Shown piece by piece: positions 2,942 to 58,436 of a stretch of 64,000 nt of DNA (positions within the stretch are counted from its first letter, which is position 1; every line of letters begins with the position of its first letter). This DNA comes from Solirubrobacterales bacterium. Its GTDB lineage: Bacteria > Actinomycetota > Thermoleophilia > Solirubrobacterales > JBBDJG01. The notes under the pieces are model-generated. The model saw only the letters and a program-made list of their open reading frames with translations, had not been told where the DNA came from and searched no databases. The stretch covers positions 16,542 through 80,541 of the forward strand of contig JBBQNR010000002.1 in assembly GCA_038330145.1 (NCBI GenBank). The letters run 5' to 3'. A program made the translations under genes and the position numbers.

Positions 2942-3937
2942 ATGGCCGACGAGCTCAAACCCGCATACCTGATCCACGGCGACGACGAGGCGAAGATCGA
3001 CGCCTGGCGCAGACGCCTGCGCGCGAGGGCCCAGGCGGAGGCAGCTGAGGCGTCGCTCGAGGTTTTGCGCGGTGAGGAGCTGACCGCCGAGGCGACGGTG
3101 GCAGCGATCGGTGCGCTAACACTCGGCGCAGGCAGGCGCTACCTGTTGGCCGACGGTGTCCAGCGCTGGAAGGATCCACACGTCAAGCAGGTCGCCGCGG
3201 CGCTGGCGGACATTCCGCCCGACACCGTGATCGTCCTGCTGTCGTCGGGCGACGCGCCGGCCGCGCTCGTGAAGGCGGTCGAGAAGGCCGGCGGTGAGGT
3301 GCACGCGGGCGCGGCGCCGAAGGCGGCGGCCTATCCGGGCTGGGCGACCAAACGTGCGCAAGAGCTCGGCGTCGGGCTGGACCGAGAGGCCGCCCAGGCC
3401 CTCGTGGCGCAGGCGGCGCGAGACAAGAAAAACAAGATCAGACAGCACACGCTGGTTCGAGAGCTGGAGAAGCTAGCCGTGTTCGTAGGGGAGGGAGCCA
3501 CGATCGACGTCGAGGCGGTCGAGGCCGTCACGACCTCAGCGATCGAGTCGCGGATCTTCGACCTTGCTGACGCGATCATCGAAGGAGACTCGTCGCGCGC
3601 CCTGCGTGTCGCCGAGGACCTGCGCGATCACGACGACGACATCATGCACATCCTGTTCGCCATGGTGCGGCAGGTGCGCAACTGCCGTCGCGCCTGGACC
3701 CTGCTGGCGGCGGGCACCTCCGCGCAGGACATCCAGGCGGACCTCGGCCAACTGCCCTGGATAGCCAAGCAAACCATCGCGCAGGCGCGGCGAGCCGATC
3801 CGGAGCGGGTGGAGCGCGCGCTCGATCTGCTTGCAGAATTGGACTGGCAGATCCGGGGTGGGGGCGACCTGGACGTCGAGAGCGCCCTCACGCTCACCGT
3901 CTCCGCTGCCGCCTCGGACCCGAGGGCGGTCGCCTGA
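2942..3937 (+). CDS. holA: DNA polymerase III delta subunit
   Basis: The 331-aa ORF occupies the conserved position after comEC. It shows delta-subunit-like N-terminal and helical C-terminal organisation, recognised by context and overall pattern only. Confidence 0.65.
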   Translation: MADELKPAYLIHGDDEAKIDAWRRRLRARAQAEAAEASLEVLRGEELTAEATVAAIGALTLGAGRRYLLADGVQRWKDPHVKQVAAALADIPPDTVIVLLSSGDAPAALVKAVEKAGGEVHAGAAPKAAAYPGWATKRAQELGVGLDREAAQALVAQAARDKKNKIRQHTLVRELEKLAVFVGEGATIDVEAVEAVTTSAIESRIFDLADAIIEGDSSRALRVAEDLRDHDDDIMHILFAMVRQVRNCRRAWTLLAAGTSAQDIQADLGQLPWIAKQTIAQARRADPERVERALDLLAELDWQIRGGGDLDVESALTLTVSAAASDPRAVA

Positions 3938-13757: not shown

Positions 13758-14204
13758 GTGACGATCACGGAGCAGGTCCAATCGGACATGGCGGAGGCGG
13801 CAAAGGCGCGTGACCAGCGTCGCCTGCAGACGCTGCGGCTCGTGCTCGACTCGCTCAGGAAAGCCGCCAAGGAGGAGCGCGACGAGCTCGACGAGCAGGC
13901 CGAGATCGCGGTGCTGAAGCGGGAGCGAAAGCGCCGCGTGGAGGCTGCGGAGGCGTTCCGTGGCGCCGGGCGAGAGGAGTCGGCCGACGCCGAGCAGGCC
14001 GAGGCGGCGTTGATCGACGTCTATCTGCCGGAGCAGATCTCCGACGGCGACCTGGCTGCGATCGTCAGCGACGCCGTCGCGGAGACCGGCGCCCAGTCGC
14101 CGGCCGAGATCGGCAAGGTGATGTCGGCGGTGATGCCGAAGGTAGGAGGGCGGGCCGACGGCAAGCGCGTCAGCGAACTGGTCCGCCAGAAGCTCGGAGC
14201 GTGA
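13758..14204 (+). CDS. GatB/YqeY domain protein
   Basis: The 148-aa ORF has a YqeY-like pattern (RLVLDSLRKAAKEE...GKVMSAVMPKVGGRADGKRVSELV). Confidence 0.75.
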   Translation: MTITEQVQSDMAEAAKARDQRRLQTLRLVLDSLRKAAKEERDELDEQAEIAVLKRERKRRVEAAEAFRGAGREESADAEQAEAALIDVYLPEQISDGDLAAIVSDAVAETGAQSPAEIGKVMSAVMPKVGGRADGKRVSELVRQKLGA

Positions 14205-14226
14205 TGGGGAGCCTGCGGGCATAGCC

Positions 14227-15204
14227 GTGCGCGAGCAGCTGACGCTCGATCCGGCGGTGGCGGCCGAGCTGGCCGGGTCCGAGGACGTGGTGTTGAAGGC
14301 GCTGGAAGGTCACCTCGGCTGCGACGTCTTCCTGCGCGGCAACGTGCTGACGCTGGACGGCGACGAGCGCGAGGTGGGAGTCGGACGTGAGGTGATACGC
14401 GAGCTGTCCGAGCTGATCGCCCGCGGGCACGAGATCGCTCCCGGCACGATCGAGGCGGTCACGTCGGCCCTCGACCAGCACGAGAGTCCGTCCACGATCC
14501 TCGGCGACGTCGTCTGGACGCACCGCGGCAACCGCGTTGCGCCCAAGACCGTGAACCAGAAGCGCTACGTCGACTCGATCCGCAACAACACGATCACCTT
14601 CGGGATCGGGCCCGCGGGCACGGGCAAGACCTACCTCGCCATGGCGATGGCGACGGCGGAGCTGTCGCGCCGCCAGGTCAACCGCATCATCCTGACGCGC
14701 CCGGCCGTCGAGGCCGGCGAGCGCCTCGGCTTTCTTCCCGGAACGATGATGGAGAAGGTCGACCCCTACCTGCGCCCGCTGTTCGACGCGCTCTACGACA
14801 TGATGGAGGCCGAGCGTGTCAACGCGCACATCGAGCGCGGCGTGATCGAGGTGGCGCCGCTGGCGTTCATGCGCGGTCGCACGCTGAACGACGCATTCAT
14901 CATCCTCGACGAGGCGCAGAACACGACACCGGAGCAGATGAAGATGTTCCTGACACGGCTCGGCTTCAACTCGACGATGGTCGTCACGGGCGACATCACT
15001 CAGATCGACCTCGAGTCGAACCAGCGCTCCGGCCTGGTGGTCGTGCGCGACATCCTCGGCGACGTCGGCGACATCGACTTCATCACCTTCGGCGGCGAGG
15101 ACGTCGTGCGGCACAAGCTGGTGCAGCAGATAGTCGAGGCCTATTCGGAGCAGGGGCAGAGCCAGGCGCCCGATCTGCGCTCGGCCCGCTCTCGCAAGAG
15201 TTAG
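14227..15204 (+). CDS. phoH: PhoH-like ATPase (YbeZ)
   Basis: It has the Walker A motif GPAGTGKTYLAMA and PhoH family blocks. It is followed by ybeY. Confidence 0.85.
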   Translation: MREQLTLDPAVAAELAGSEDVVLKALEGHLGCDVFLRGNVLTLDGDEREVGVGREVIRELSELIARGHEIAPGTIEAVTSALDQHESPSTILGDVVWTHRGNRVAPKTVNQKRYVDSIRNNTITFGIGPAGTGKTYLAMAMATAELSRRQVNRIILTRPAVEAGERLGFLPGTMMEKVDPYLRPLFDALYDMMEAERVNAHIERGVIEVAPLAFMRGRTLNDAFIILDEAQNTTPEQMKMFLTRLGFNSTMVVTGDITQIDLESNQRSGLVVVRDILGDVGDIDFITFGGEDVVRHKLVQQIVEAYSEQGQSQAPDLRSARSRKS

Positions 15205-25221: not shown

Positions 25222-25298
25222 CGCTTCGCGTTCCCGGCGAACGATCCTCACGCAGTGACGCTTCCGTTCCCGGCGAACGTTCCGAGCAGCGCCACGAG
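25218..25298 (+). repeat. Family A 3'-arm fragment, tandemly duplicated (37-nt unit then 44-nt unit)
   Basis: GTGACGCTTC(G)CGTTCCCGGCGAACG(A/T)TCC occurs twice. The second unit continues ...GAGCAGCGCCACGAG, which matches the 3' arm of copies 1-3. It starts at the trpA stop. Confidence 0.7.
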
Positions 25299-25389: not shown

Positions 25390-25554
25390 ATGATCGTCTA
25401 CCTTGCCGCCGTCATCGGAGCATGCATCTTCGTCGTGCTCTGGGCGACGGGCCTGAACGCGGACGTCGCCGGGCTGATCGCCCTGGCGATCCTGGGAGCC
25501 GGGATCCTGGGACACATGGCCACGTCGGCGGGCACAGACGAGGAACGCACCTAG
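25390..25554 (+). CDS. Small hypothetical membrane protein (54 aa, two predicted TM helices)
   Basis: An AGGAG Shine-Dalgarno lies about 6 nt before ATG 25390. Third codon positions are strongly G/C. The protein is hydrophobic (MIVYLAAVIGACIFVVLWATG...). Confidence 0.5.
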   Translation: MIVYLAAVIGACIFVVLWATGLNADVAGLIALAILGAGILGHMATSAGTDEERT

Positions 25555-25606
25555 TGGGCCTTCTCGGAACGTTCACCAGGTGAAACGGTTTGAGAGGGGC
25601 CTCTAG
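25551..25606 (-). repeat. Family A core-less mini-element (two arms joined as one long hairpin, inverted orientation)
   Basis: It reads CTAGTGGGCCTTCTCGGAACGTTCACC-AGG-TGAAACGGTTTGAGAGGGGCCTCTAG. The first arm matches the reverse complement of the copy 2 3' arm. It starts at the TAG of the small ORF. Confidence 0.7.
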
Positions 25607-25628: not shown

Positions 25629-25663
25629 GCTCGCCATTCGCCGGCGAACCTTTCGACTGAGGC
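25629..25663 (+). repeat. Family A 3'-arm-like fragment
   Basis: GCTCGCCATTCGCCGGCGAACCTTTCGACTGAGGCC resembles CTCGCCGTTCCCTGGCGACCGTTCCGAGCCAGACC of copy 3. The similarity is weaker than for the other fragments. Confidence 0.4.
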
Positions 25664-34444: not shown

Positions 34445-34495
34445 TGGAGGACCAGCTTAGTGGGGCATCGGGGTGGGAAGTCACCCTGCTGGCGC

Positions 34496-34501
34496 TATAG
34501 T
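34496..34501 (+). promoter_or_regulatory. -10 box of leaderless rpsA
   Basis: TATAGT is followed by 7 nt and then GTG 34509. Confidence 0.45.
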
Positions 34502-34508
34502 TCCGCAC

Positions 34509-36086
34509 GTGCCGCAGGTCGACACGCCCCCGCAGGCTGCGCCCGGGGTCGAGACTTTCAACGGCAGCGACCTCATGATCGAGGTCGATGGCCAGCTCGT
34601 CCCGAACTACGACGCGACCATCAAGCCCTTCGAGGAGGGAGATGTCGTCACGGGCAAAGTCGTGCGCATCGACAAGGACGAGGTCCTGGTCGACATCGGC
34701 TACAAGTCGGAGGGCGTCATACCCATCAGCGAGCTTTCGATCCGGCGCTCGGTCGATCCCTCCGAGGAGGTCGAGCTGGGCGAGGAGGTGGATGCGCTGG
34801 TCCTCACCAAGGAGGATCAGGACGGCCGCCTGCTGCTTTCGAAGAAGCGCGCCCGCTTCGAGCGCGCGTGGCGCAAGATCGAGGAGGCGGCGACAACCGG
34901 CGAGCCCGTCGAGGGCAAGGTGATCGAGGTCGTCAAGGGCGGTCTCATAATCGACCTCGGGGTACGCGGATTCCTGCCCGCCTCGCTGGTCGACATCCGC
35001 CGGGTGCAGAACCTCGACGAGTACCTCGGGCAGACCATCGAGTGCAAGGTGATCGAGCTCAACCGCAGCCGCAACAACGTCGTGCTCTCGCGGCGAGCGG
35101 TGCTGGAGGAGGAGCGCAAGGAGGCCCGCCAGCAGATCCTCGACCGGCTCCAGAAAGGCGAGGTCGTGGAGGGCACGATCTCCAACATCGTCGACTTCGG
35201 CGCCTTCGTCGACCTCGACGGCATCGACGGCCTGATCCACATCTCCGAGCTTTCGTGGGGCCACGTCAACCACCCGTCGGAGGTGCTCACGATCGGTCAG
35301 ACCGTGAGCGTCAAGGTGCTCGACATCGACCGTGACCGCCAGCGCATCTCGCTTGGTCTCAAGCAGACCCAGGAGGACCCGTGGCAGCGGGTCGTCAGCA
35401 CATACACCGTGGGCGACGTGCTCGAGGGCAAGGTGACAAAGGTGGTCGCCTTCGGAGCCTTCGTCGAGGTGATGGAGGGCGTCGAGGGCTTGGTCCACAT
35501 CTCCGAGCTTGCACAGCACCACGTCGAGAACCCGCGTGAAATCGTCAACCCGGGCGACGTCGGCCGCGTCAAGATCCTCGAGATCGACGAGGAGCGCCGC
35601 CGCCTGTCGCTGAGCTTCAAGCGCGTCGAGGACCAGATACTGCCGATCCGCGACCGCATGGTTGCGCCGCCGGCGGAAGACGGAGGCGAGGCCGGTGACG
35701 CGCCGGAGCTGGGTCTTTCAGAGGACGTCTTCACGTCGGAGCCGGCCGAAGTCGAGGCCGCGCAGGTGGCTGCGCCGGAGCTTGAAACCGAGGCCCCCGT
35801 TGCGGCCGAGCCCGTGCCGGCGGAGGCCGAGCCTGCGCCAGCGGAGGCAGAGCCCGAGGCCGCGGAGGCAGAGCCCGAGGCCGCAGAGGCAGAGCCCGAG
35901 GCCGCAGAGACTGCGCCCGAGGCGCCGATCGACGCTGAGCCCGAGGCCGTGCCGGAGCCAGAAGCCCCGGCTGCGGAGGCTCCAGCGGAGGAGCAGCCCG
36001 CCGCGGACGCCGGCGGCGAGCAGCCGGAGACGGCGCAGGACGCGGACGCGGCCCCGGACGAGCCCGCAGACGAGCCCGCGCCCTAA
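34509..36086 (+). CDS. rpsA: 30S ribosomal protein S1 with acidic Ala/Glu/Pro C-terminal tail
   Basis: It has four S1 repeats (GDVVTGKVVRID..., GKVIEVVKGG..., VEGTISNIVDFGAFVDL, LEGKVTKVVAFGAFVEV). The start is uncertain among GTG 34473, GTG 34509 and ATG 34575. I prefer 34509 because TATAGT lies 7 nt upstream. Confidence 0.88.
   Translation: MPQVDTPPQAAPGVETFNGSDLMIEVDGQLVPNYDATIKPFEEGDVVTGKVVRIDKDEVLVDIGYKSEGVIPISELSIRRSVDPSEEVELGEEVDALVLTKEDQDGRLLLSKKRARFERAWRKIEEAATTGEPVEGKVIEVVKGGLIIDLGVRGFLPASLVDIRRVQNLDEYLGQTIECKVIELNRSRNNVVLSRRAVLEEERKEARQQILDRLQKGEVVEGTISNIVDFGAFVDLDGIDGLIHISELSWGHVNHPSEVLTIGQTVSVKVLDIDRDRQRISLGLKQTQEDPWQRVVSTYTVGDVLEGKVTKVVAFGAFVEVMEGVEGLVHISELAQHHVENPREIVNPGDVGRVKILEIDEERRRLSLSFKRVEDQILPIRDRMVAPPAEDGGEAGDAPELGLSEDVFTSEPAEVEAAQVAAPELETEAPVAAEPVPAEAEPAPAEAEPEAAEAEPEAAEAEPEAAETAPEAPIDAEPEAVPEPEAPAAEAPAEEQPAADAGGEQPETAQDADAAPDEPADEPAP
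35841..35924 (+). repeat. In-frame 21-bp tandem repeat x3-4 in the rpsA tail, encoding (AEAEPEA)n
   Basis: GC(G/A)GAGGCAGAGCCCGAGGCC occurs three times, followed by a degenerate fourth unit. Confidence 0.8.
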
Positions 36087-36251
36087 GTGGCGCTCTTCGA
36101 AACGTTTCACCGCAAACGGCGGCCTCCGGAACCGCCATGCGGCGTCCTCGGTCGCCCACGTACTCACCGAGTACGCGGGCTTCCTGCGTCCTTGCCTGGC
36201 AGCCCCGGAACTGCGCCGTTTCCTGGCGAACGTTCCGGCGAACGCCACTAG
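36084..36251 (+). repeat. Family A structured intergenic element, full copy 1 (rpsA-coaE spacer)
   Basis: It runs from TAAGTGGCG to CGCCACTAG. The outer ~27-35 nt are inverted complements. Internal hairpins lie at 36118-36136 and 36155-36179. Its ~70-nt core differs from copy 3 at only two positions. Confidence 0.85.
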
Positions 36252-36257
36252 CCCTAG

Positions 36258-36857
36258 TTGCTCTTCATTGGCCTGACCGGCGGTATCGGGGCGGGCAAGT
36301 CGGAAGCCCTCGCCGCATCCGAGCGGCTGGGCGCCGCGGTGCTGTCCACGGACGCGGTCGTGCACGAGCTGCTGGGCAGCGACGAGTTGCGCGAGGCGCT
36401 GTCCGAGCACTGGGGCGAGCGGGTGCTGGCAGCAAGCGGCGAGGTCGACCGCGCCGCGGTGGCGGAGATCGTGTTCGAGAGCCCGGAGGAGCTTCGCTGG
36501 CTGGAGTCGGTGGTGTTTCCCCGCGTCGGCGAGCGCGTCGTCGCCTGGCGGGCGGACCTCGAGGCGGCACCCGATCCGCCGCCGGCTGCCGTGGTGGAGG
36601 TGCCCCTGCTGTTCGAGGCCGGTATCGAAGGTATCTTCGACACAACGATTGCGGTGGTGAGCGCGGAGCAGACTCGCGCCCAGCGCGCCGAGGACCGCGG
36701 CCAGCCCGGCCTGGGCGGCCGCGAGGCGCGCCAGCTCACCCAAGAAGAGAAGGCCGAACGGGCGGATCACGTGGTGCGAAACGAGGGAACGCTGGAGGAG
36801 TTGGAGCAGTCGATGCGGGAGGTGCTGGGCTCGCTGACGCGCGGTGATACGCGTTGA
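36258..36857 (+). CDS. coaE: Dephospho-CoA kinase
   Basis: It has the P-loop IGLTGGIGAGKS. It occupies the conserved position after rpsA. The start is TTG. Confidence 0.85.
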   Translation: MLFIGLTGGIGAGKSEALAASERLGAAVLSTDAVVHELLGSDELREALSEHWGERVLAASGEVDRAAVAEIVFESPEELRWLESVVFPRVGERVVAWRADLEAAPDPPPAAVVEVPLLFEAGIEGIFDTTIAVVSAEQTRAQRAEDRGQPGLGGREARQLTQEEKAERADHVVRNEGTLEELEQSMREVLGSLTRGDTR

Positions 36858-37772: not shown

Positions 37773-39803
37773 GTGCCCCCGTTCAAGTTCAACCCCGCCT
37801 ATAAGCCCGTCGCGGACCAGCCCCAGGCGATCAGCCGGCTGGCCGAGGGCCTCGATCGTGGCGATCGCTTCCAGACGCTGCTGGGGGTGACCGGCTCCGG
37901 TAAGACGGCGACGATGGGCTTCACGATCGAGCAGATCCAGAAGCCGACGCTCGTGCTTGCCCACAACAAGACCCTGGCGGCCCAGCTCTGCAGCGAGTTC
38001 CGGGAGTTCTTTCCCGACAACGCCGTGGAGTACTTCGTCTCCTACTACGACTACTACCAGCCTGAGGCCTATGTCCCGCAGCAGGACCTCTACATAGAGA
38101 AGGACTCCTCGATCAACGACGAGATCGACCGCCTGCGCCACTCGGCCACGGCGGCCCTGTTCGCGCGCAGGGACGTCATCATCGTGGCCTCGGTCTCCTG
38201 CATCTACGGCATCGGCTCCCCCGACCTCTACAAGGAGAAAATGCTGTTGCTGAGGGTGGGGGACTGGGTCGATCGTGACGCCACGCTGCGCCAGCTTGTG
38301 TCGATGCAGTACAGCCGCAACGACCAGAACCTGACTCGCGGCACGTTCAGGGTGCGCGGAGAGGTTCTGGAGGTCCATCCCTCCTACGCCGACAGCGCCT
38401 ACCGCGTGCAGCTCTTCGGCGACGAGGTCGAGCGCATCCAGCACTTCGACCCGCTCACCGGCGAGATCCATCACGAGCTCAGCCACGTCGACGTCTGGCC
38501 CGCCACCCACTACGTGACCTCGCCCGACATCATCGAGCGCTCGCTGCACGAGATAAAGCACGAGATGGAGGAGCGCTGCGCCTGGCTCGAGGCCAACGGC
38601 AAGCCGCTCGAGTCGCACCGGCTGCGCCAGCGCACGCAGTACGACATGGAGATGCTGAAGGAGATGGGGTTCACCTCGGGGATCGAGAACTACTCGCGCA
38701 TCCTCGACGGCCGTCCCGCCGGCTCGCCGCCGCACACGCTGATCGATTACTTCCCCGACGACTTCGTCTGCTTCATCGACGAGTCGCATCAGACGGTTCC
38801 GCAGGTGGGCGGCATGTACGAGGGCGACCGCTCCCGCAAGCAGACGCTGATCGACTTCGGCTTCCGGCTGCCGTCGGCGCTCGACAACCGGCCGCTGCGC
38901 TTCGACGAGTTCCTCAAGCGCGTTCCTCAAATCGTGTTCGCCTCGGCGACGCCGGGGCCGTACGAGCGTGAGCACTCGGAGCAGGTCGTTGAGCAGATCG
39001 TGCGCCCGACGGGGATCGTCGACCCGGAGGTCGAGGTGCGCGAGACCAAGCACCAGATCGACGACCTCATGAACGAGATCCGCGTGCGGGCGGAGGCCGA
39101 CGAGCGCGTTCTGGTCACGACGCTGACCAAGAAGATGGCCGAAGACCTGACCGGCTATCTGCTCGAGTACGGCTTCCGGGTGCGCTACCTGCACTCGGAG
39201 ATCGACACGCTGGAGCGGATCCAGATCATTCGCGACCTGCGGCTGGGCGAGTACGACGTTCTGGTGGGTGTGAACCTGCTGCGGGAGGGCCTGGACCTGC
39301 CGGAGGTCTCACTGATCGGAATCCTCGACGCCGACAAGGAGGGCTTCCTACGCGGAGAGACCAGCCTGATCCAGACCATCGGCCGGGCCGCCCGCAACGT
39401 CAACGGCCGGGTGCTGATGTACGCCGACCGCGAGACGGCATCGATGCGGGCCGCGATCGGGGAGACGGATCGTCGCCGAACCATCCAGCTCGCCTACAAC
39501 GAGGAGCATGGCATCACGGCCGCGACGGTGAAGAAGGGCATATCCGACATGTCCGACTTCCTGTCGCTGGAGTCACAGGCCGTGCCGCGCTCGAAGAGGC
39601 GGCGCGCCGACCGCGACGAGGACGTGCGCACTCCCGAGGAGCTCGAGCGCCTGATCGTCGAGATCGAAGAGGAGATGCTCGCCGCCGCGGAGGACCTGCG
39701 CTTCGAGTACGCGGCGAAGCTGCGCGACGAGATCCGTGAGCTGCGCCGCGAGTACGAGCTGGCGGGCGGCAGCCGCACCGCCGGCGACACCAGCTCGACC
39801 TAG
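37773..39803 (+). CDS. uvrB: Excinuclease ABC subunit B
   Basis: The motifs [10 protein letters not shown], a helicase DExx block and a C-terminal UVR domain ([13 protein letters not shown]) are present. The start is GTG. Confidence 0.93.
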
Positions 39804-39968
39804 TGGCCCTTCTCAAAACGTTTCAGCGGGAACGGCGGCCTCCGGGGGCCGCCATGCGGCGTCCTCTGTCGACCCTGTACTGACCGGTACAGGGTCTCCC
39901 TGCGTCCTTGCCTGGCGGCCCCGGGCGCCTCGCCGTTGCCTGGCGAACGCTCCGAGAAGGCCCACCAG
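39801..39968 (+). repeat. Family A structured intergenic element, full copy 2 (uvrB / DUF2182 convergent spacer)
   Basis: It has the same architecture, running from TAGTGGCCC to GGCCCACCAG. Hairpins lie at 39834-39853 and 39871-39896, with compensatory changes relative to copies 1 and 3. Confidence 0.85.
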
Positions 39969-39980
39969 GAGCTCGAAGAT

Positions 39981-52439: not shown

Positions 52440-53261
52440 GTGGCTACCGTCGACGCCGACACCCGCCGCCAGCAGCTGGTCGATTTCTGGCATGAGCTGC
52501 AGGACTGCCAGAAGTGCCCGCTCGCCGAAGGCCGCACACAGGTTGTGTTCGGGACCGGCAACGCCGACTCGGACCTGATGTTCGTGGGCGAGGCTCCCGG
52601 GTTCCACGAGGACCGTCAGGGAAAGCCGTTCGTGGGCCAGGCGGGCAAGCTGCTCGACAAGCTGTTGGCCGAGATCGGGCTCGAGCGCAAGCAGTGCTTC
52701 ATCGCCAACGTGCTCAAGTGCAGGCCACCGGGAAACCGCGACCCGCGCCCCGACGAGATCGACGCCTGCAAGGACCATCTCCTGAAGCAGATAGAGCTGA
52801 TTCAGCCCAAGGTCATCTGCACGCTCGGCAACTTCGCGACCAAGCTGCTGACGGGTCGCCCGGACGGCATCACCAAGGTGCACGGCACTCCGCAGACCCA
52901 CGAGATCGCCGGGCAGACGCTGTTCCTCTACCCGATCTTCCACCCCGCGGCGGCGCTCTACACGCCGGCCATGCTGGAGCAGCTGCGCGCCGATTTCGGC
53001 CGTATCCCGGAGTTGCTGAAAGCAAAGGCAGGAGGGACGACGCCTCCGAAGCTGGAGCGGCCGGTGCCTCCGGCGGTACCGGAGCCCACGCCTCCGCCGA
53101 TCCCCGAGCCAACCCCGCCGCCGATCCCGGAGCCAACGCCTCCGCCGATCCCGGAGCCAACGCCTCCGCCGATTCCCGAGCCGACGCCTCCCCCGGAGCT
53201 GGTCGGAGCGATGGCCGGCGCGGCCGAGAGCCCGGACGACGAGCAACTGGGCCTGTTCTAG
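52440..53261 (+). CDS. udg: Family-4-type uracil-DNA glycosylase with Pro-rich repeat tail
   Basis: The motifs GEAPG and CRPPGNRDP are present, with 4Fe-4S Cys residues. The C-terminus carries (PPPIPEPT)n. Confidence 0.85.
   Translation: MATVDADTRRQQLVDFWHELQDCQKCPLAEGRTQVVFGTGNADSDLMFVGEAPGFHEDRQGKPFVGQAGKLLDKLLAEIGLERKQCFIANVLKCRPPGNRDPRPDEIDACKDHLLKQIELIQPKVICTLGNFATKLLTGRPDGITKVHGTPQTHEIAGQTLFLYPIFHPAAALYTPAMLEQLRADFGRIPELLKAKAGGTTPPKLERPVPPAVPEPTPPPIPEPTPPPIPEPTPPPIPEPTPPPIPEPTPPPELVGAMAGAAESPDDEQLGLF
53094..53189 (+). repeat. In-frame 24-bp tandem repeat x4 in the udg 3' region, encoding (PPPIPEPT)n
   Basis: CCGCCGATCCC(C/G)GAGCCAAC(C/G)CC(G/T) units are read directly, and a partial unit precedes them. 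Confidence 0.8.
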
Positions 53262-56390: not shown

Positions 56391-57068
56391 ATGACCTTCC
56401 GCGAGGAGATTCTCGCTGCAGAGACGGAGCTCGACGACGCCAAGCCACTGACCGAGCGGCTCTCACTCGGCGTCGCAGCTCGTCTTTCGCGCTACCTCCA
56501 GGTGCTGACGCAGGCGAAAAAGATGGGCAAGGAGACGATCTCCTCCCAGGAGCTGTCGGACTACACGCACATCAACTCGACCCAGATCCGGCGCGATCTC
56601 TCGGGCTTCGGCAAGTTCGGCAAGCGGGGGGTTGGATACAACGTCGACTCGCTCGTCTCGCAGATTCGCAAGATCCTGCGCACGTCCGGGCAGCACAACA
56701 TCGCGCTCTTCGGCGCCGGCAACCTGGGCCAGGCGATCGCCAGCTCCGACATCTTCGCCGACCACGGGTTCCGGGTCGTGGCGATCTTCGACGTGGAGCC
56801 GAAGAAGGTGGGCAAGAAGGTGGGCACCCTCGAGGTGCGCGCCAACGGCTCGCTGCGCGAGGTGGTGGACGAGGAGGACATCGTCGTCGGCGTGCTCGCC
56901 GTCCCAGCCGCCGCGGCGCAGCAGGTGGCCGACGACCTGGTGGAAGCCGGCATCCGGATCATCTTCAACTACTCCGACGCGCTGCTCCAGGTGCCGCCCG
57001 ACGTAACTGTTCACACATCGAGCCCCGCGGTGGACCTGCTGTACGCGCTCTACTTCTACCTGACCTAG
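56391..57068 (+). CDS. rex: Redox-sensing transcriptional repressor Rex
   Basis: It has the wHTH sequence SSQELSDYTHINSTQIRRDLSGFGKFGKRGVGY and the Rossmann motif LFGAGNLG. An alternative TTG start lies at 56355. Confidence 0.88.
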   Translation: MTFREEILAAETELDDAKPLTERLSLGVAARLSRYLQVLTQAKKMGKETISSQELSDYTHINSTQIRRDLSGFGKFGKRGVGYNVDSLVSQIRKILRTSGQHNIALFGAGNLGQAIASSDIFADHGFRVVAIFDVEPKKVGKKVGTLEVRANGSLREVVDEEDIVVGVLAVPAAAAQQVADDLVEAGIRIIFNYSDALLQVPPDVTVHTSSPAVDLLYALYFYLT

Positions 57069-57232
57069 TGGCCTGTCTCGTAACGTCTCGCCGGAACCGG
57101 CGGTCTTCGGAACCGCCATGCAGCGTCCTCGGTCGCCCACGTACTCACCGAGTACGCGGGCTTCCTGCGTCCTTGCCTGGCGGCCCCGAAGCCTCGCCGT
57201 TCCCTGGCGACCGTTCCGAGCCAGACCACTAG
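57066..57232 (+). repeat. Family A structured intergenic element, full copy 3 (rex-GCS2 spacer)
   Basis: It runs from TAGTGGCC to GACCACTAG. The rex stop codon is the first three nt of the element. Confidence 0.85.
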
Positions 57233-57239
57233 CACTGCT

Positions 57240-58436
57240 TTGGGCCTCGACCTCGACCAAGCGAGGGAGGTGTTCGAGTCGTCGACCGACTTCACGGTCG
57301 GGCTCGAGGAGGAGTTCGGGCTGCTCGACCCGAGCAGCCTCTCGCTCGTCAACGCCTTCGAGGGCCTGGCCGAGGAGGGCCGCCAGGACGAGGTGCTCGC
57401 CGACTCGCTGGCGGGAGAGCTGATCTCCTCGGAGGCGGAGATCCGCTCCGGCAAGGGCGCCGACTTCGCCGATGCCGTCGCGCGGCAGATGGAGCGTCGC
57501 AACCGCCTCTTCGCACTTGCCGCCCGGCGTGGCATAGCGCTCGGCGCAATGGGCACCCACCCCTGGAGCCCATGGCAGGAGCAGCACATCATCGACACAC
57601 CTCACTACCGCCGCGTCGAGGACGACCTGCGCTACGTCGCCTGGCGCAACAACACCTTCAGCGTGCACGTGCACGTCGGCATCCAGGGCCCGGACCGGGC
57701 GGTGGCCGTCTCCGACGCGATGCGTCCGCTGCTTCCCACGCTGCTTGCCATATCCGCCAACTCCGCCTTCGTGGAAGGGGTCTTCTGCGGCCTGCACTCG
57801 GCGCGCACGCAGGTTTTCACGAGGAGCTTCCCGCGCTGCGGGGTGCCCGACTTCTTCGGCGACTGGCCTACCTACCGGGACTACGTGGCACTGCTGCAGA
57901 AAACGAACTCGATCATCGAGTACACCCAGGTCTGGTGGAGCGTGCGGCCCCACCTGGGCTTCGGCACGGTCGAGCTGCGAATCATGGACGCCCAGTCGCG
58001 CGGTGACGAGTCGTTCGCGCTGGCGGCTCTGGCCACCGCCTGTCTGGTGCAGGCGGCATTCGACTTCGACGACGGCATTCGGCCGCAGCCGGTTCCGCAG
58101 CGCCTGATCGAGGAGAACATGTGGCGGGCGATCCGCTACGGGATGGATGGAGATCTGATCGACTTCGACCACGAGCGGGAGCAGCCCGCCCGAGCTGCGG
58201 TCGAGGGTTTGCTCAAGTGGTCGGAGCCCGCGCGCGCGGCCCTCAACCTGGACGCCCATCTGGAGGGGTTGGGGAGGGCGCTGTCGGAGGGCAACGGCGC
58301 GCAGCGCCAATGGCGCCGGCACGAGCGGGGCGATCCCGCACGAGACATCTACGCGGCGAGCGTGGCCGAGACCTGCGCGACCTACCCGGACGCGAGCACC
58401 GAGTCATGCGGCCATCTCGAGGGGGTAATGACGTGA
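57240..58436 (+). CDS. Carboxylate-amine ligase, GCS2 (YbdK) family
   Basis: GCS2 blocks are present (GLEEEF, HVHVG, ELRIMD). The start is TTG. Confidence 0.8.
   Translation: MGLDLDQAREVFESSTDFTVGLEEEFGLLDPSSLSLVNAFEGLAEEGRQDEVLADSLAGELISSEAEIRSGKGADFADAVARQMERRNRLFALAARRGIALGAMGTHPWSPWQEQHIIDTPHYRRVEDDLRYVAWRNNTFSVHVHVGIQGPDRAVAVSDAMRPLLPTLLAISANSAFVEGVFCGLHSARTQVFTRSFPRCGVPDFFGDWPTYRDYVALLQKTNSIIEYTQVWWSVRPHLGFGTVELRIMDAQSRGDESFALAALATACLVQAAFDFDDGIRPQPVPQRLIEENMWRAIRYGMDGDLIDFDHEREQPARAAVEGLLKWSEPARAALNLDAHLEGLGRALSEGNGAQRQWRRHERGDPARDIYAASVAETCATYPDASTESCGHLEGVMT

Follow-up and report, generated by a model that had tools for sequence, protein, structure and literature searches.

A previously undescribed small mobile DNA element of Thermoleophilia with predicted translational coupling at stop codons

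Why should three junctions between unrelated genes on one bacterial contig carry almost the same block of about 168 nt? The question is raised by a 64,000-nt stretch of a Solirubrobacterales bacterium (assembly GCA_038330145.1, contig JBBQNR010000002.1, positions 16,542 to 80,541, G+C content 68.8%), the whole of which is called the window below. Each block is a copy of a small mobile DNA element, not described before, of Thermoleophilia, a class of soil actinobacteria. It is probably a non-autonomous, palindromic element of the kind known as MITEs (miniature inverted-repeat transposable elements), which integrates at TA in (C/T)TAG-type sites and would have a translational coupling like that of mycobacterial interspersed repetitive units (MIRUs). 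A search with UvrB likewise assigned the window to a Solirubrobacterales metagenome-assembled genome.

A first-pass annotation of the same letters had pointed out the three blocks. They are indeed present, all on the plus strand and 79–86% identical (copies 1 and 3, 85.6%; 1 and 2, 81%; 2 and 3, 78.7%), with E-values of 1e-34 to 5e-44 among them in BLASTN searches within the window. As had been claimed, the core of copy 1 departs from that of copy 3 at no more than two positions, and the flanks are unrelated. The copies and their boundaries are as follows.

36084–36251, plus strand: copy 1, full element with flanking stop triplets, between rpsA and coaE; nhmmer score 109.9 bits
36084–36086, plus strand: TAA, present stop codon of rpsA and left copy of the duplicated TA(R); the open reading frame (ORF) 34473–36086 ends here
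36087–36248, plus strand: copy 1 body, GTGG...CCAC, 162 nt, a 54-codon pass-through frame open to the TAG; peptide unconserved
36249–36251, plus strand: TAG, the original stop codon of rpsA, which now ends the pass-through frame; coaE has its TTG start at 36258
39801–39968, plus strand: copy 2, 3′ of uvrB with a convergent gene next; decaying, its frame closed by TGA and its right TAG changed to CAG
57066–57232, plus strand: copy 3, between rex and the GCS2 gene; the rex stop codon TAG is 57066–57068; the frame is intact over 54 codons and ends at TAG 57230–57232, and the GCS2 gene has its TTG start at 57240

Filled and empty sites

All three sites are empty in the nearest relatives, whose flanking proteins are 89–95% identical. 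The rpsA–coaE spacer has only 6 nt in the related contigs L201 (UvrB 95% identical) and L203 (89%), and 42 nt, again lacking the element, in a third (P0004 contig; 90% identical). The spacer 3′ of uvrB measures 18 nt in L201 and 14 nt in L203, site 2 being empty in L201, L202 and L203. The interval from rex to the GCS2 gene is an empty spacer of 14 nt in L205 (Rex 91% identical) and an unrelated spacer in L204. At site 1 the empty form in L201 reads GCGACC-TAG-CCCTAG-TTGCTCTTCAT, and the filled form in the window reads GCGCCC-TAA-[GTGGCG...CGCCAC]-TAG-CCCTAG-TTGCTCTTCAT. Thus, the rpsA stop codon is TAG when the site is empty and TAA[...]TAG when it is filled, with TA(R) on both sides. A reciprocal pair was also found, in which L201 is filled (587–750, flanked by TTAG...TTAG) and the window carries a single TTAG.

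34457–34460, plus strand: TTAG, unoccupied target; the relative L201 has a family copy exactly here, with TTAG on both sides

Another unoccupied target in the window lies at 14190–14230, and L107 carries a copy at the orthologous junction.

Outside the window, ribosomal-protein junctions (rplW-rplB, rplB-rpsS) and others hold a copy in some species and lack one in others. Within a single genome, copies from different loci are mutual nearest neighbours in 16 of 34 cases, and mean identity is 81% within one genome and 69% between genomes. These comparisons show that copies have been gained and lost at many sites and have multiplied within lineages, and we hold with high confidence that the element is a mobile repeat. 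The first-pass annotation had offered a MITE-like element and a dispersed structured RNA as alternatives; the mobile one is now backed by precise empty/filled pairs. As distant empty sites, 80 CoaE loci from metagenomes (53–70% identity) were scanned, and none of these 80 holds a full copy. One metagenome contig with a coaE homologue (L136, 2370–3140) shows unrelated, perfect 63-bp inverted repeats 771 bp apart.

The family extends far beyond this contig. The 18-mer CCTGCGTCCTTGCCTGGC, the best-conserved one of the element and part of its core, matches at least 119 genome blocks, about 115 of which carry the element; four matches in proteobacteria (L017, L028, L053, L083) were regarded as chance and discarded. 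A hidden Markov model (HMM) built from 67 copies and run on the same 0.9 Mb of 18-mer-matching blocks added 16 copies that do not have the exact 18-mer. The carriers are about 100 different metagenome-assembled genomes (MAGs) of Solirubrobacterales, Gaiellales, Thermoleophilales and Conexibacteraceae. The expectation of a dispersed element with many further copies elsewhere is supported, with at least 115 loci. Some of them lie in ribosomal-protein and ATP-synthase operons (rplW-rplB, rplB-rpsS, atpA-atpG). In L116 (1007–1336), two full head-to-tail copies have one common TAG and a third, near-identical copy lies 4 kb off, which suggests a very recent burst in that MAG.

The first-pass annotation had not recognised the blocks as a known RNA family, and an Rfam scan of the whole window gave no match at gathering thresholds. 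At E≤10 there is only sub-threshold noise; the best score, PrrB/RsmZ on the minus strand, is 14.7 bits against a threshold of 44 and reflects GGA motifs. The family has no match in a plasmid collection searched with blastn, and the 18-mer has one chance match in viral contigs with no element around it. The core motif is not enriched outside elements, so there is no sign of a dispersed binding site. No description of such a repeat was found in the literature on Thermoleophilia.

Stop codons, reading frame and gene context

The commonest junction of the element is C-TA-GTGG...CCAC-TA-G. Its left end is TAGTG in 42 of 86 copies and its right end is a stop triplet in 68 of 86; in 36 of 86 the right end overlaps a start codon (TAGTG, TGATG, TAATG) or abuts one. 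Where the upstream gene is on the plus strand of the element, its stop codon lies at most about 5 nt from the left end, and it is TAG in 43 of 72 cases. The blocks had been described as lying next to unrelated genes; this is true of their flanks, but the description missed that the ends form the upstream stop codon and often the downstream start context. CTAG is rare, occurring 30 times in 64 kb, and for the most part represents a stop codon after a C-ending codon. The position of the element on stop codons would be explained because TA within (C/T)TAG mostly belongs to stop codons at 69% G+C.

The commonest junction fits an insertion at TA inside (C/T)TAG with duplication of the TA, and sites 1 and 3 are compatible with it. 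Identical end triplets are found in 31 of 86 copies against 24.6 in shuffles, and the repeat is 2–3 nt long and merges with the palindromic ends. Both well-defined empty/filled pairs (site 1 and the L201 copy) show a 1-nt asymmetry, and these asymmetries, together with the copies ending in TGATG, may instead mean that 3 nt (TAR/TTA) are duplicated or that insertion follows some other mechanism. On both sides of copy 2, just outside CCTAG...CCAGG, there is a 7-nt direct repeat, AGCTCGA (39792–39798 and 39970–39976). Seen around copy 2 alone, this repeat is probably a matter of chance; if real, it would imply a different insertion event.

The body of 162 nt equals exactly 54 codons. A GTG that overlaps the left stop codon opens a frame, and this frame ends on the right stop codon, which is the original stop codon of the gene, as shown at site 1. 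The frame is uninterrupted and in phase in 44 of 86 copies and ends 2–7 nt later in 12 more. Full-length copies range from 161 to 171 nt, counted so that both the left and the right TAG are included, and the mode of 167 nt is reached in 50 of 86; the arm and loop partitions 58+40+69, 59+40+68 and 57+41+69 all total 167. The peptide itself is not conserved, and depending on the subfamily the invariant core is read in any of the three frames. Of the window copies, 1 and 3 are open and copy 2, which faces a convergent gene, is interrupted by an in-frame TGA, the stop that had already been noticed in a frame open in the other two. The further claim that no reading frame is conserved is thus right for the peptide and wrong for openness and phase, which are kept in 29 of 41 intercistronic copies in sense context against 4 of 19 elsewhere.

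This dependence on context was traced with gene strands called by a codon-usage frame caller, which was trained on long ORFs of the window and recovered rpsA, coaE and the ribosomal-protein operons. At co-directional sites, 45 copies are in sense and 9 in antisense orientation (p = 7e-7); 10 sites are convergent and 2 divergent. The frame is intact in 29 of 41 copies with sense genes on both sides and in 4 of 19 where the downstream gene is on the opposite strand or the element is antisense (p = 6e-4). Likewise, the phase of the length is kept in 34 of 41 sense-flanked copies against 6 of 19 of the others (p = 2e-4). Of 52 copies before a sense gene, 37 have a Shine-Dalgarno (SD)-like tetramer within the final 16 nt of the 3′ arm, as against 1 of 17 before an antisense gene (p = 2e-6). 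Over all 86 copies, each plus-strand frame is open in 48–66 and each minus-strand frame in 15–41. Although these p-values are indicative only, the context pattern is what selection for translational continuity would predict.

How, then, would the element be tolerated inside operons? Filled and empty sequences show that it inserts precisely in a stop codon, retains a stop for the upstream gene and places a body of 3n length before the original stop/start context. After insertion the upstream gene stops on TA plus the first G of the element, and the original stop codon keeps its prior overlap or adjacency with the start of the next gene. A ribosome that terminates at the new stop would re-initiate at the overlapping GTG or melt the outer stem, so that the hairpin would be translated and hence unwound. 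Termination at the original stop, beside the downstream start, would then preserve the coupling of the operon. In the untranslated state, the outer stem would pair the SD motif of the 3′ arm and the start region with the CCUCC-like 5′ arm. We place moderate confidence in this mechanism of translational coupling. If coupling survives insertion in this way, the element would be nearly harmless in sense orientation inside operons, and its orientation bias as well as the conservation of frame, length and SD motif in that context alone would be explained.

Fold, core and competing explanations

Each copy forms one long imperfect hairpin. Copy 1 folds with an energy of −83 kcal/mol as the plus strand (z −5.4) and of −109 kcal/mol as the minus strand (z −9.0). 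The inverted outer ends reported at first sight are real, and they belong to a fold that takes in the whole element. From nhmmer alignment, RNAalifold and pair counting, the minus-strand alignment has 46 consensus pairs, at which 91.4% of pairs are standard, compared with 69.7% in column shuffles and 37–43% in slid controls. In 37 of the 46 pairs there are changes on both sides, with 673 compensatory cells, and 0 of 500 shuffles reach the observed values. The outer helix has 20 pairs (94.7% paired, 19 covarying), and the ends of the element are GTGG../..CCAC. Two hairpins had been proposed in the core of copy 1; that at 36155–36179 stands as the apical hairpin, which is variable and strongly covarying, but the other, at 36118–36136, has no family-wide support, and its bases pair with the 3′ arm. 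The central features of copy 1 are these.

36142–36150, plus strand: core direct repeat 1, GCGTCCTCG; near-invariant in 67 aligned copies and outside the search pattern
36155–36179, plus strand: apical hairpin; its sequence varies among genomes and its pairing is kept, with double compensatory changes in 9 of 11 pairs (helix 6)
36186–36194, plus strand: core direct repeat 2, GCGTCCTTG, within the 18-mer CCTGCGTCCTTGCCTGGC; kept in copies found by nhmmer that do not have the exact 18-mer

The centre is thus laid out as GCCATGCGGCGTCCTCGGTCGC-[variable hairpin]-GCTCCCTGCGTCCTTGCCTGGC. In a short class of about 101–107 nt only the inner arms and the core are present, and core-only copies define the minimal conserved unit as two direct GCGTCCT(C/T)G repeats, 44 nt apart, that flank the hairpin. 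Since the two repeats are direct, the palindrome is interrupted and the element is polar. The invariance of the 18-mer is a consequence of sampling by this 18-mer, and the independent evidence comes from the first repeat and from the copies found by the HMM only. The core repeats are invariant across Gaiellales, Solirubrobacterales and Thermoleophilales; the arms differ by subfamily yet stay paired. Such inverted conservation, with an invariant core and changing arms, suggests a conserved trans-acting partner. Several variants of this plan were seen. The short forms L082, L020, L043 and L071 end in TGACGG...CGTCA, and the upstream gene uses the TGA of the left end as its stop codon. The copies in L037 (about 2950–3040) and L077 (432–640) contain an additional hairpin of about 45 nt, nested within the 5′ core repeat region, and the apical hairpin is enlarged in L001, L069, L088 and L092.

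The two strands are not equivalent. Scored symmetrically, arm mismatches are of the A.C type on the plus strand (equivalent to G.U on the minus) in 481 cases against 124 of the opposite kind, and 73 of 79 elements show the bias. Counted over the 46 consensus pairs, G.U pairs occur 347 times on the minus strand as against 55 on the plus. All 86 copies fold more stably as the minus strand, by 24 kcal/mol on average. The plus strand, which is C-rich and G-poor (C 37%, G 29%), is the mRNA sense at most sites, and the strand bias is intrinsic to the element in either orientation. Purifying selection on the minus-strand fold, as antisense RNA or as a single-stranded DNA intermediate, and selection for a weaker sense-RNA hairpin with the ends kept similar both fit the counts. 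Read on the minus strand, the core (36109–36230) contains AAGGACGC and GAGGACGC-CGC-ATG, that is, SD-like GGA motifs followed by a start codon. A minus-strand ORF starting from the conserved SD-like GAGGAC..ATG was considered and rejected, as by inspection it is out of phase with the terminal TAG and enters the flank.

Several points weigh against a passive, MITE-like element with coupled ends. No duplication was detected outside TA(G), and what there is amounts to 2–3 nt that overlap the palindromic ends. The right end is TGATG, with no TA, in 12 of 86 copies, which would need a change of TAATG to TGATG (A>G) after insertion. The copies are phylogenetically non-independent, so the p-values above are indicative only, and the gene strands come from a codon-usage model, not from annotation. 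Open frames are common by chance at this G+C, the other two plus-strand frames being open in 48 and 61 of the 86 copies. Arms that vary by subfamily around a core invariant across three orders are the reverse of what a transposase-bound MITE leads one to expect, and double-stranded cut-and-paste does not explain the pairing bias for the minus strand. Finally, an autonomous element with matching termini was not found in 1.3 Mb of related sequence, a small sample: neither family ends in inverted orientation 0.25–4 kb apart nor any other IS-like inverted repeat bearing them turned up. Since no autonomous partner was found, we only infer mobilisation by a transposase; the foremost candidate, which is a guess, would be a DDE transposase of the IS630/Tc1-mariner type that duplicates TA.

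The core and the minus-strand bias point to an additional, strand-specific interaction. Because the invariant core is asymmetric, its two direct GCGTCCT repeats facing each other as a symmetric bubble, and because the minus strand pairs better, it is conceivable, if rather doubtful, that the element is not a passive cut-and-paste MITE at all. It might propagate through a strand-specific single-stranded DNA or RNA intermediate with a conserved enzyme, or might have been taken over as an RNA device between cistrons that a conserved host factor binds and that spread through operons of the whole class.

A rival explanation is that the element is primarily a disseminated, cis-acting structured RNA module with a function for the host, in which the core is the functional site and the arms present it. 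It could act as an intercistronic site of processing or stability, regulate translation, or serve as a platform to which Rho or an RNA-binding protein attaches. Core repeats that are invariant in three orders with covarying arms would be natural for such a module, as would the strong orientation bias, the C-rich and G-poor plus strand, the SD motif as a local adaptation of the 3′ arm and the copies in ribosomal-protein and ATP-synthase operons. However, relatives have neither the element nor a substitute at the rpsA–coaE, uvrB and rex junctions, so it is dispensable at each site, and the sites are functionally unrelated. Neither a promoter nor an intrinsic terminator was detected, Rfam has no match, and the pairing bias favours the antisense strand over the mRNA. 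We regard this explanation as unlikely, and note that it is compatible with mobility.

Another rival, a strand-specific mobile element, would take the minus strand as a single-stranded DNA or RNA intermediate and the symmetric GCGTCCT bubble as the recognition site, and would be driven by an HUH/Y1 enzyme (REP/RAYT, IS200/IS605) or by a retroelement. It would account for the minus strand folding about 24 kcal/mol better in 86 of 86 copies, with wobble pairs concentrated there, and for the lack of a clear duplication past TA(G). The invariant core within a variable hairpin follows a REP-like logic, and the TAG-tagged ends recall the stop-donating GTAG-REPs (PMC3733652). However, two precise empty/filled pairs repeat TA(R) or TTAG on both sides, which is unexpected for HUH transposition, and a length of 162 nt exceeds that of a REP four- to eightfold. 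Elements of the IS200/IS605 type use the lagging-strand template, but the better-folding strand in co-directional operons is the leading-strand template. Moreover, selection that weakens the sense-RNA hairpin could give the same bias. We think this explanation improbable.

That the element serves as an intrinsic, factor-independent terminator or attenuator is very improbable: it is a very stable, G+C-rich hairpin directly after stop codons, but it has no U-tract, no T-run follows any window copy, no terminator-like site was found in 35900–36400, only 10 of the classified sites are convergent, and most copies lie between tightly coupled operon genes (rplW-rplB, rplB-rpsS, atpA-atpG), where termination would be lethal. 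A genuine 54-residue product of a small-protein gene family, suggested by the open frame with start and stop in 44 of 86 copies and by the similar peptides of copies 1 and 3, is effectively refuted, as the core is read in three frames (..AAMRRPRS..LPASLPG.., ..RRHAASSVAP..APCVLAWL.. and ..PPCGVLGR..), compensating indels shift the frame inside the element, copy 2 is interrupted, and palindromy rather than codons constrains the sequence.

Smaller pieces of the family are also scattered over the window, as the first-pass annotation had anticipated.

25551–25606, plus strand: mini-palindrome, CTAGTGGGCC...GGGGCCTCTAG, 56 nt, outer arms only; it starts at the TAG stop codon of a small plus-strand ORF
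25222–25298, plus strand: two tandem 3′-arm-like fragments immediately 3′ of a TGA stop codon; the second ends in GCGCCACGAG

The arms of the mini-palindrome are CTAGTGGGCCTTCTCGGAACGTTCACC/AGGTGAAACGGTTTGAGAGGGGCCTCTAG, and it is probably an internally deleted derivative of the family. A parS-like reading of GTTCACC..GGTGAAAC within it was considered a coincidence of the AACGTT arm motif. Another arm-like piece occurs at 25630–25660, 330 nt downstream of the tandem fragments, and both this piece and the fragments are probably decayed remnants. Two tandem repeats of other kinds were observed in the window. A short way upstream of copy 1, 21-nt repeats (35793–35897) encode a repetitive, Pro/Ala/Glu-rich C-terminal tail of RpsA, and five or more 24-nt repeats resembling GCCTCCGCCGATCCCGGAGCCAAC lie at 53042–53195.

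Significance and comparison with known systems

With this element, a class of soil bacteria that is abundant but has been little studied gains a large repeat family that is unannotated. Gene callers will mislabel it as "hypothetical proteins" of 54 aa, predicted stops and starts can shift, and it is a likely cause of assembly breaks in MAGs; its presence/absence polymorphism offers potential strain markers. At the level of sequence, it is a case of a selfish element that survives in essential operons (ribosomal proteins, ATP synthase, rpsA) and brings its own stop codon, restart codon, body of 3n length and, where needed, SD motif. The coupling trick, so far described for mycobacterial MIRUs, would thereby be extended to a MITE of palindromic form. 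Both the invariant core and the strand bias offer handles for finding the factor that mobilises or binds it.

MIRUs occur in Mycobacterium as head-to-tail tandem units of 46–101 bp. Like the present element they are actinobacterial, intergenic and apparently mobile, and are made harmless through coupling; as intergenic repeats with a logic of translational coupling they provide a precedent for the predicted mechanism (PMC12548453). The element has the corresponding trait, in that the ends of its internal ORF overlap the flanking stop and start (TAGTG on the left in 42/86, start contact on the right in 36/86). However, MIRUs do not form long palindromes, and they are inserted at start codons, with overlaps of −4. 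The element described here consists of one 162-nt hairpin with inverted ends and no MIRU sequence, placed at TA in stop codons of Thermoleophilia, and its copies are single units that lie adjacent only at L116. The RPE of Rickettsia are likewise palindromic repeats of about 100–150 bp that are translatable, preserve the frame and are tolerated in coding contexts, but RPEs lie in frame inside genes and become part of the protein, whereas the present element ends the upstream gene and opens a separate, coupled frame.

Similarity to REP and BIME sequences is seen in the conserved motif beside a covarying hairpin and in strand-specific features. In GTAG-REPs, which are extragenic palindromes of high copy number, the tag contains TAG and often provides the flanking ORF with its stop codon (PMC3733652). 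REPs differ in having 20–40 nt, a GTAG or CGTC tag, no target duplication and a linked Y1 transposase gene, whereas the present element has 162 nt, CTAG/TAG at both ends and TA(G) repeated at its insertion sites.

In architecture, the enterobacterial YPAL/RU-2 and ERIC/IRU resemble it. These are imperfect palindromes of 127–168 bp in transcribed intergenic regions, with TA termini and target duplication, and they form long stem-loop transcripts that are co-transcribed with upstream genes; they contain a contiguous ORF, which has 56 aa in the 168-bp YPAL, and show empty and filled sites between close species (PMC2229807). They are, however, A+T-richer, gammaproteobacterial and unrelated in sequence, and a systematic use of the ends as stop and start, a fixed 3n body coupled at both ends and a class-wide invariant, asymmetric core have not been described for them.

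RUP and the MITEs of the IS630/Tc1-mariner type, as well as Correia/NEMIS, are small and non-autonomous, have inverted ends, and insert at TA, which is duplicated, and RUP has been attributed to IS630-Spn1 by similarity of the ends. IS630 targets CTAG and duplicates TA, and the C-TA-G junctions found here match this targeting. The differences are that no cognate insertion sequence with the same ends was found (1.3 Mb, a small sample), that the ends vary and the centre is conserved, and that TGATG right ends occur with no TA. The element nevertheless shares with MITEs a small body (162 nt) that has no transposase gene and no ORF but the 54-codon frame, terminal inverted repeats and a dispersed presence/absence polymorphism. 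Thus, it is best classed with the bacterial MITEs and palindromic repeats, to which it would add a MIRU-like coupling.

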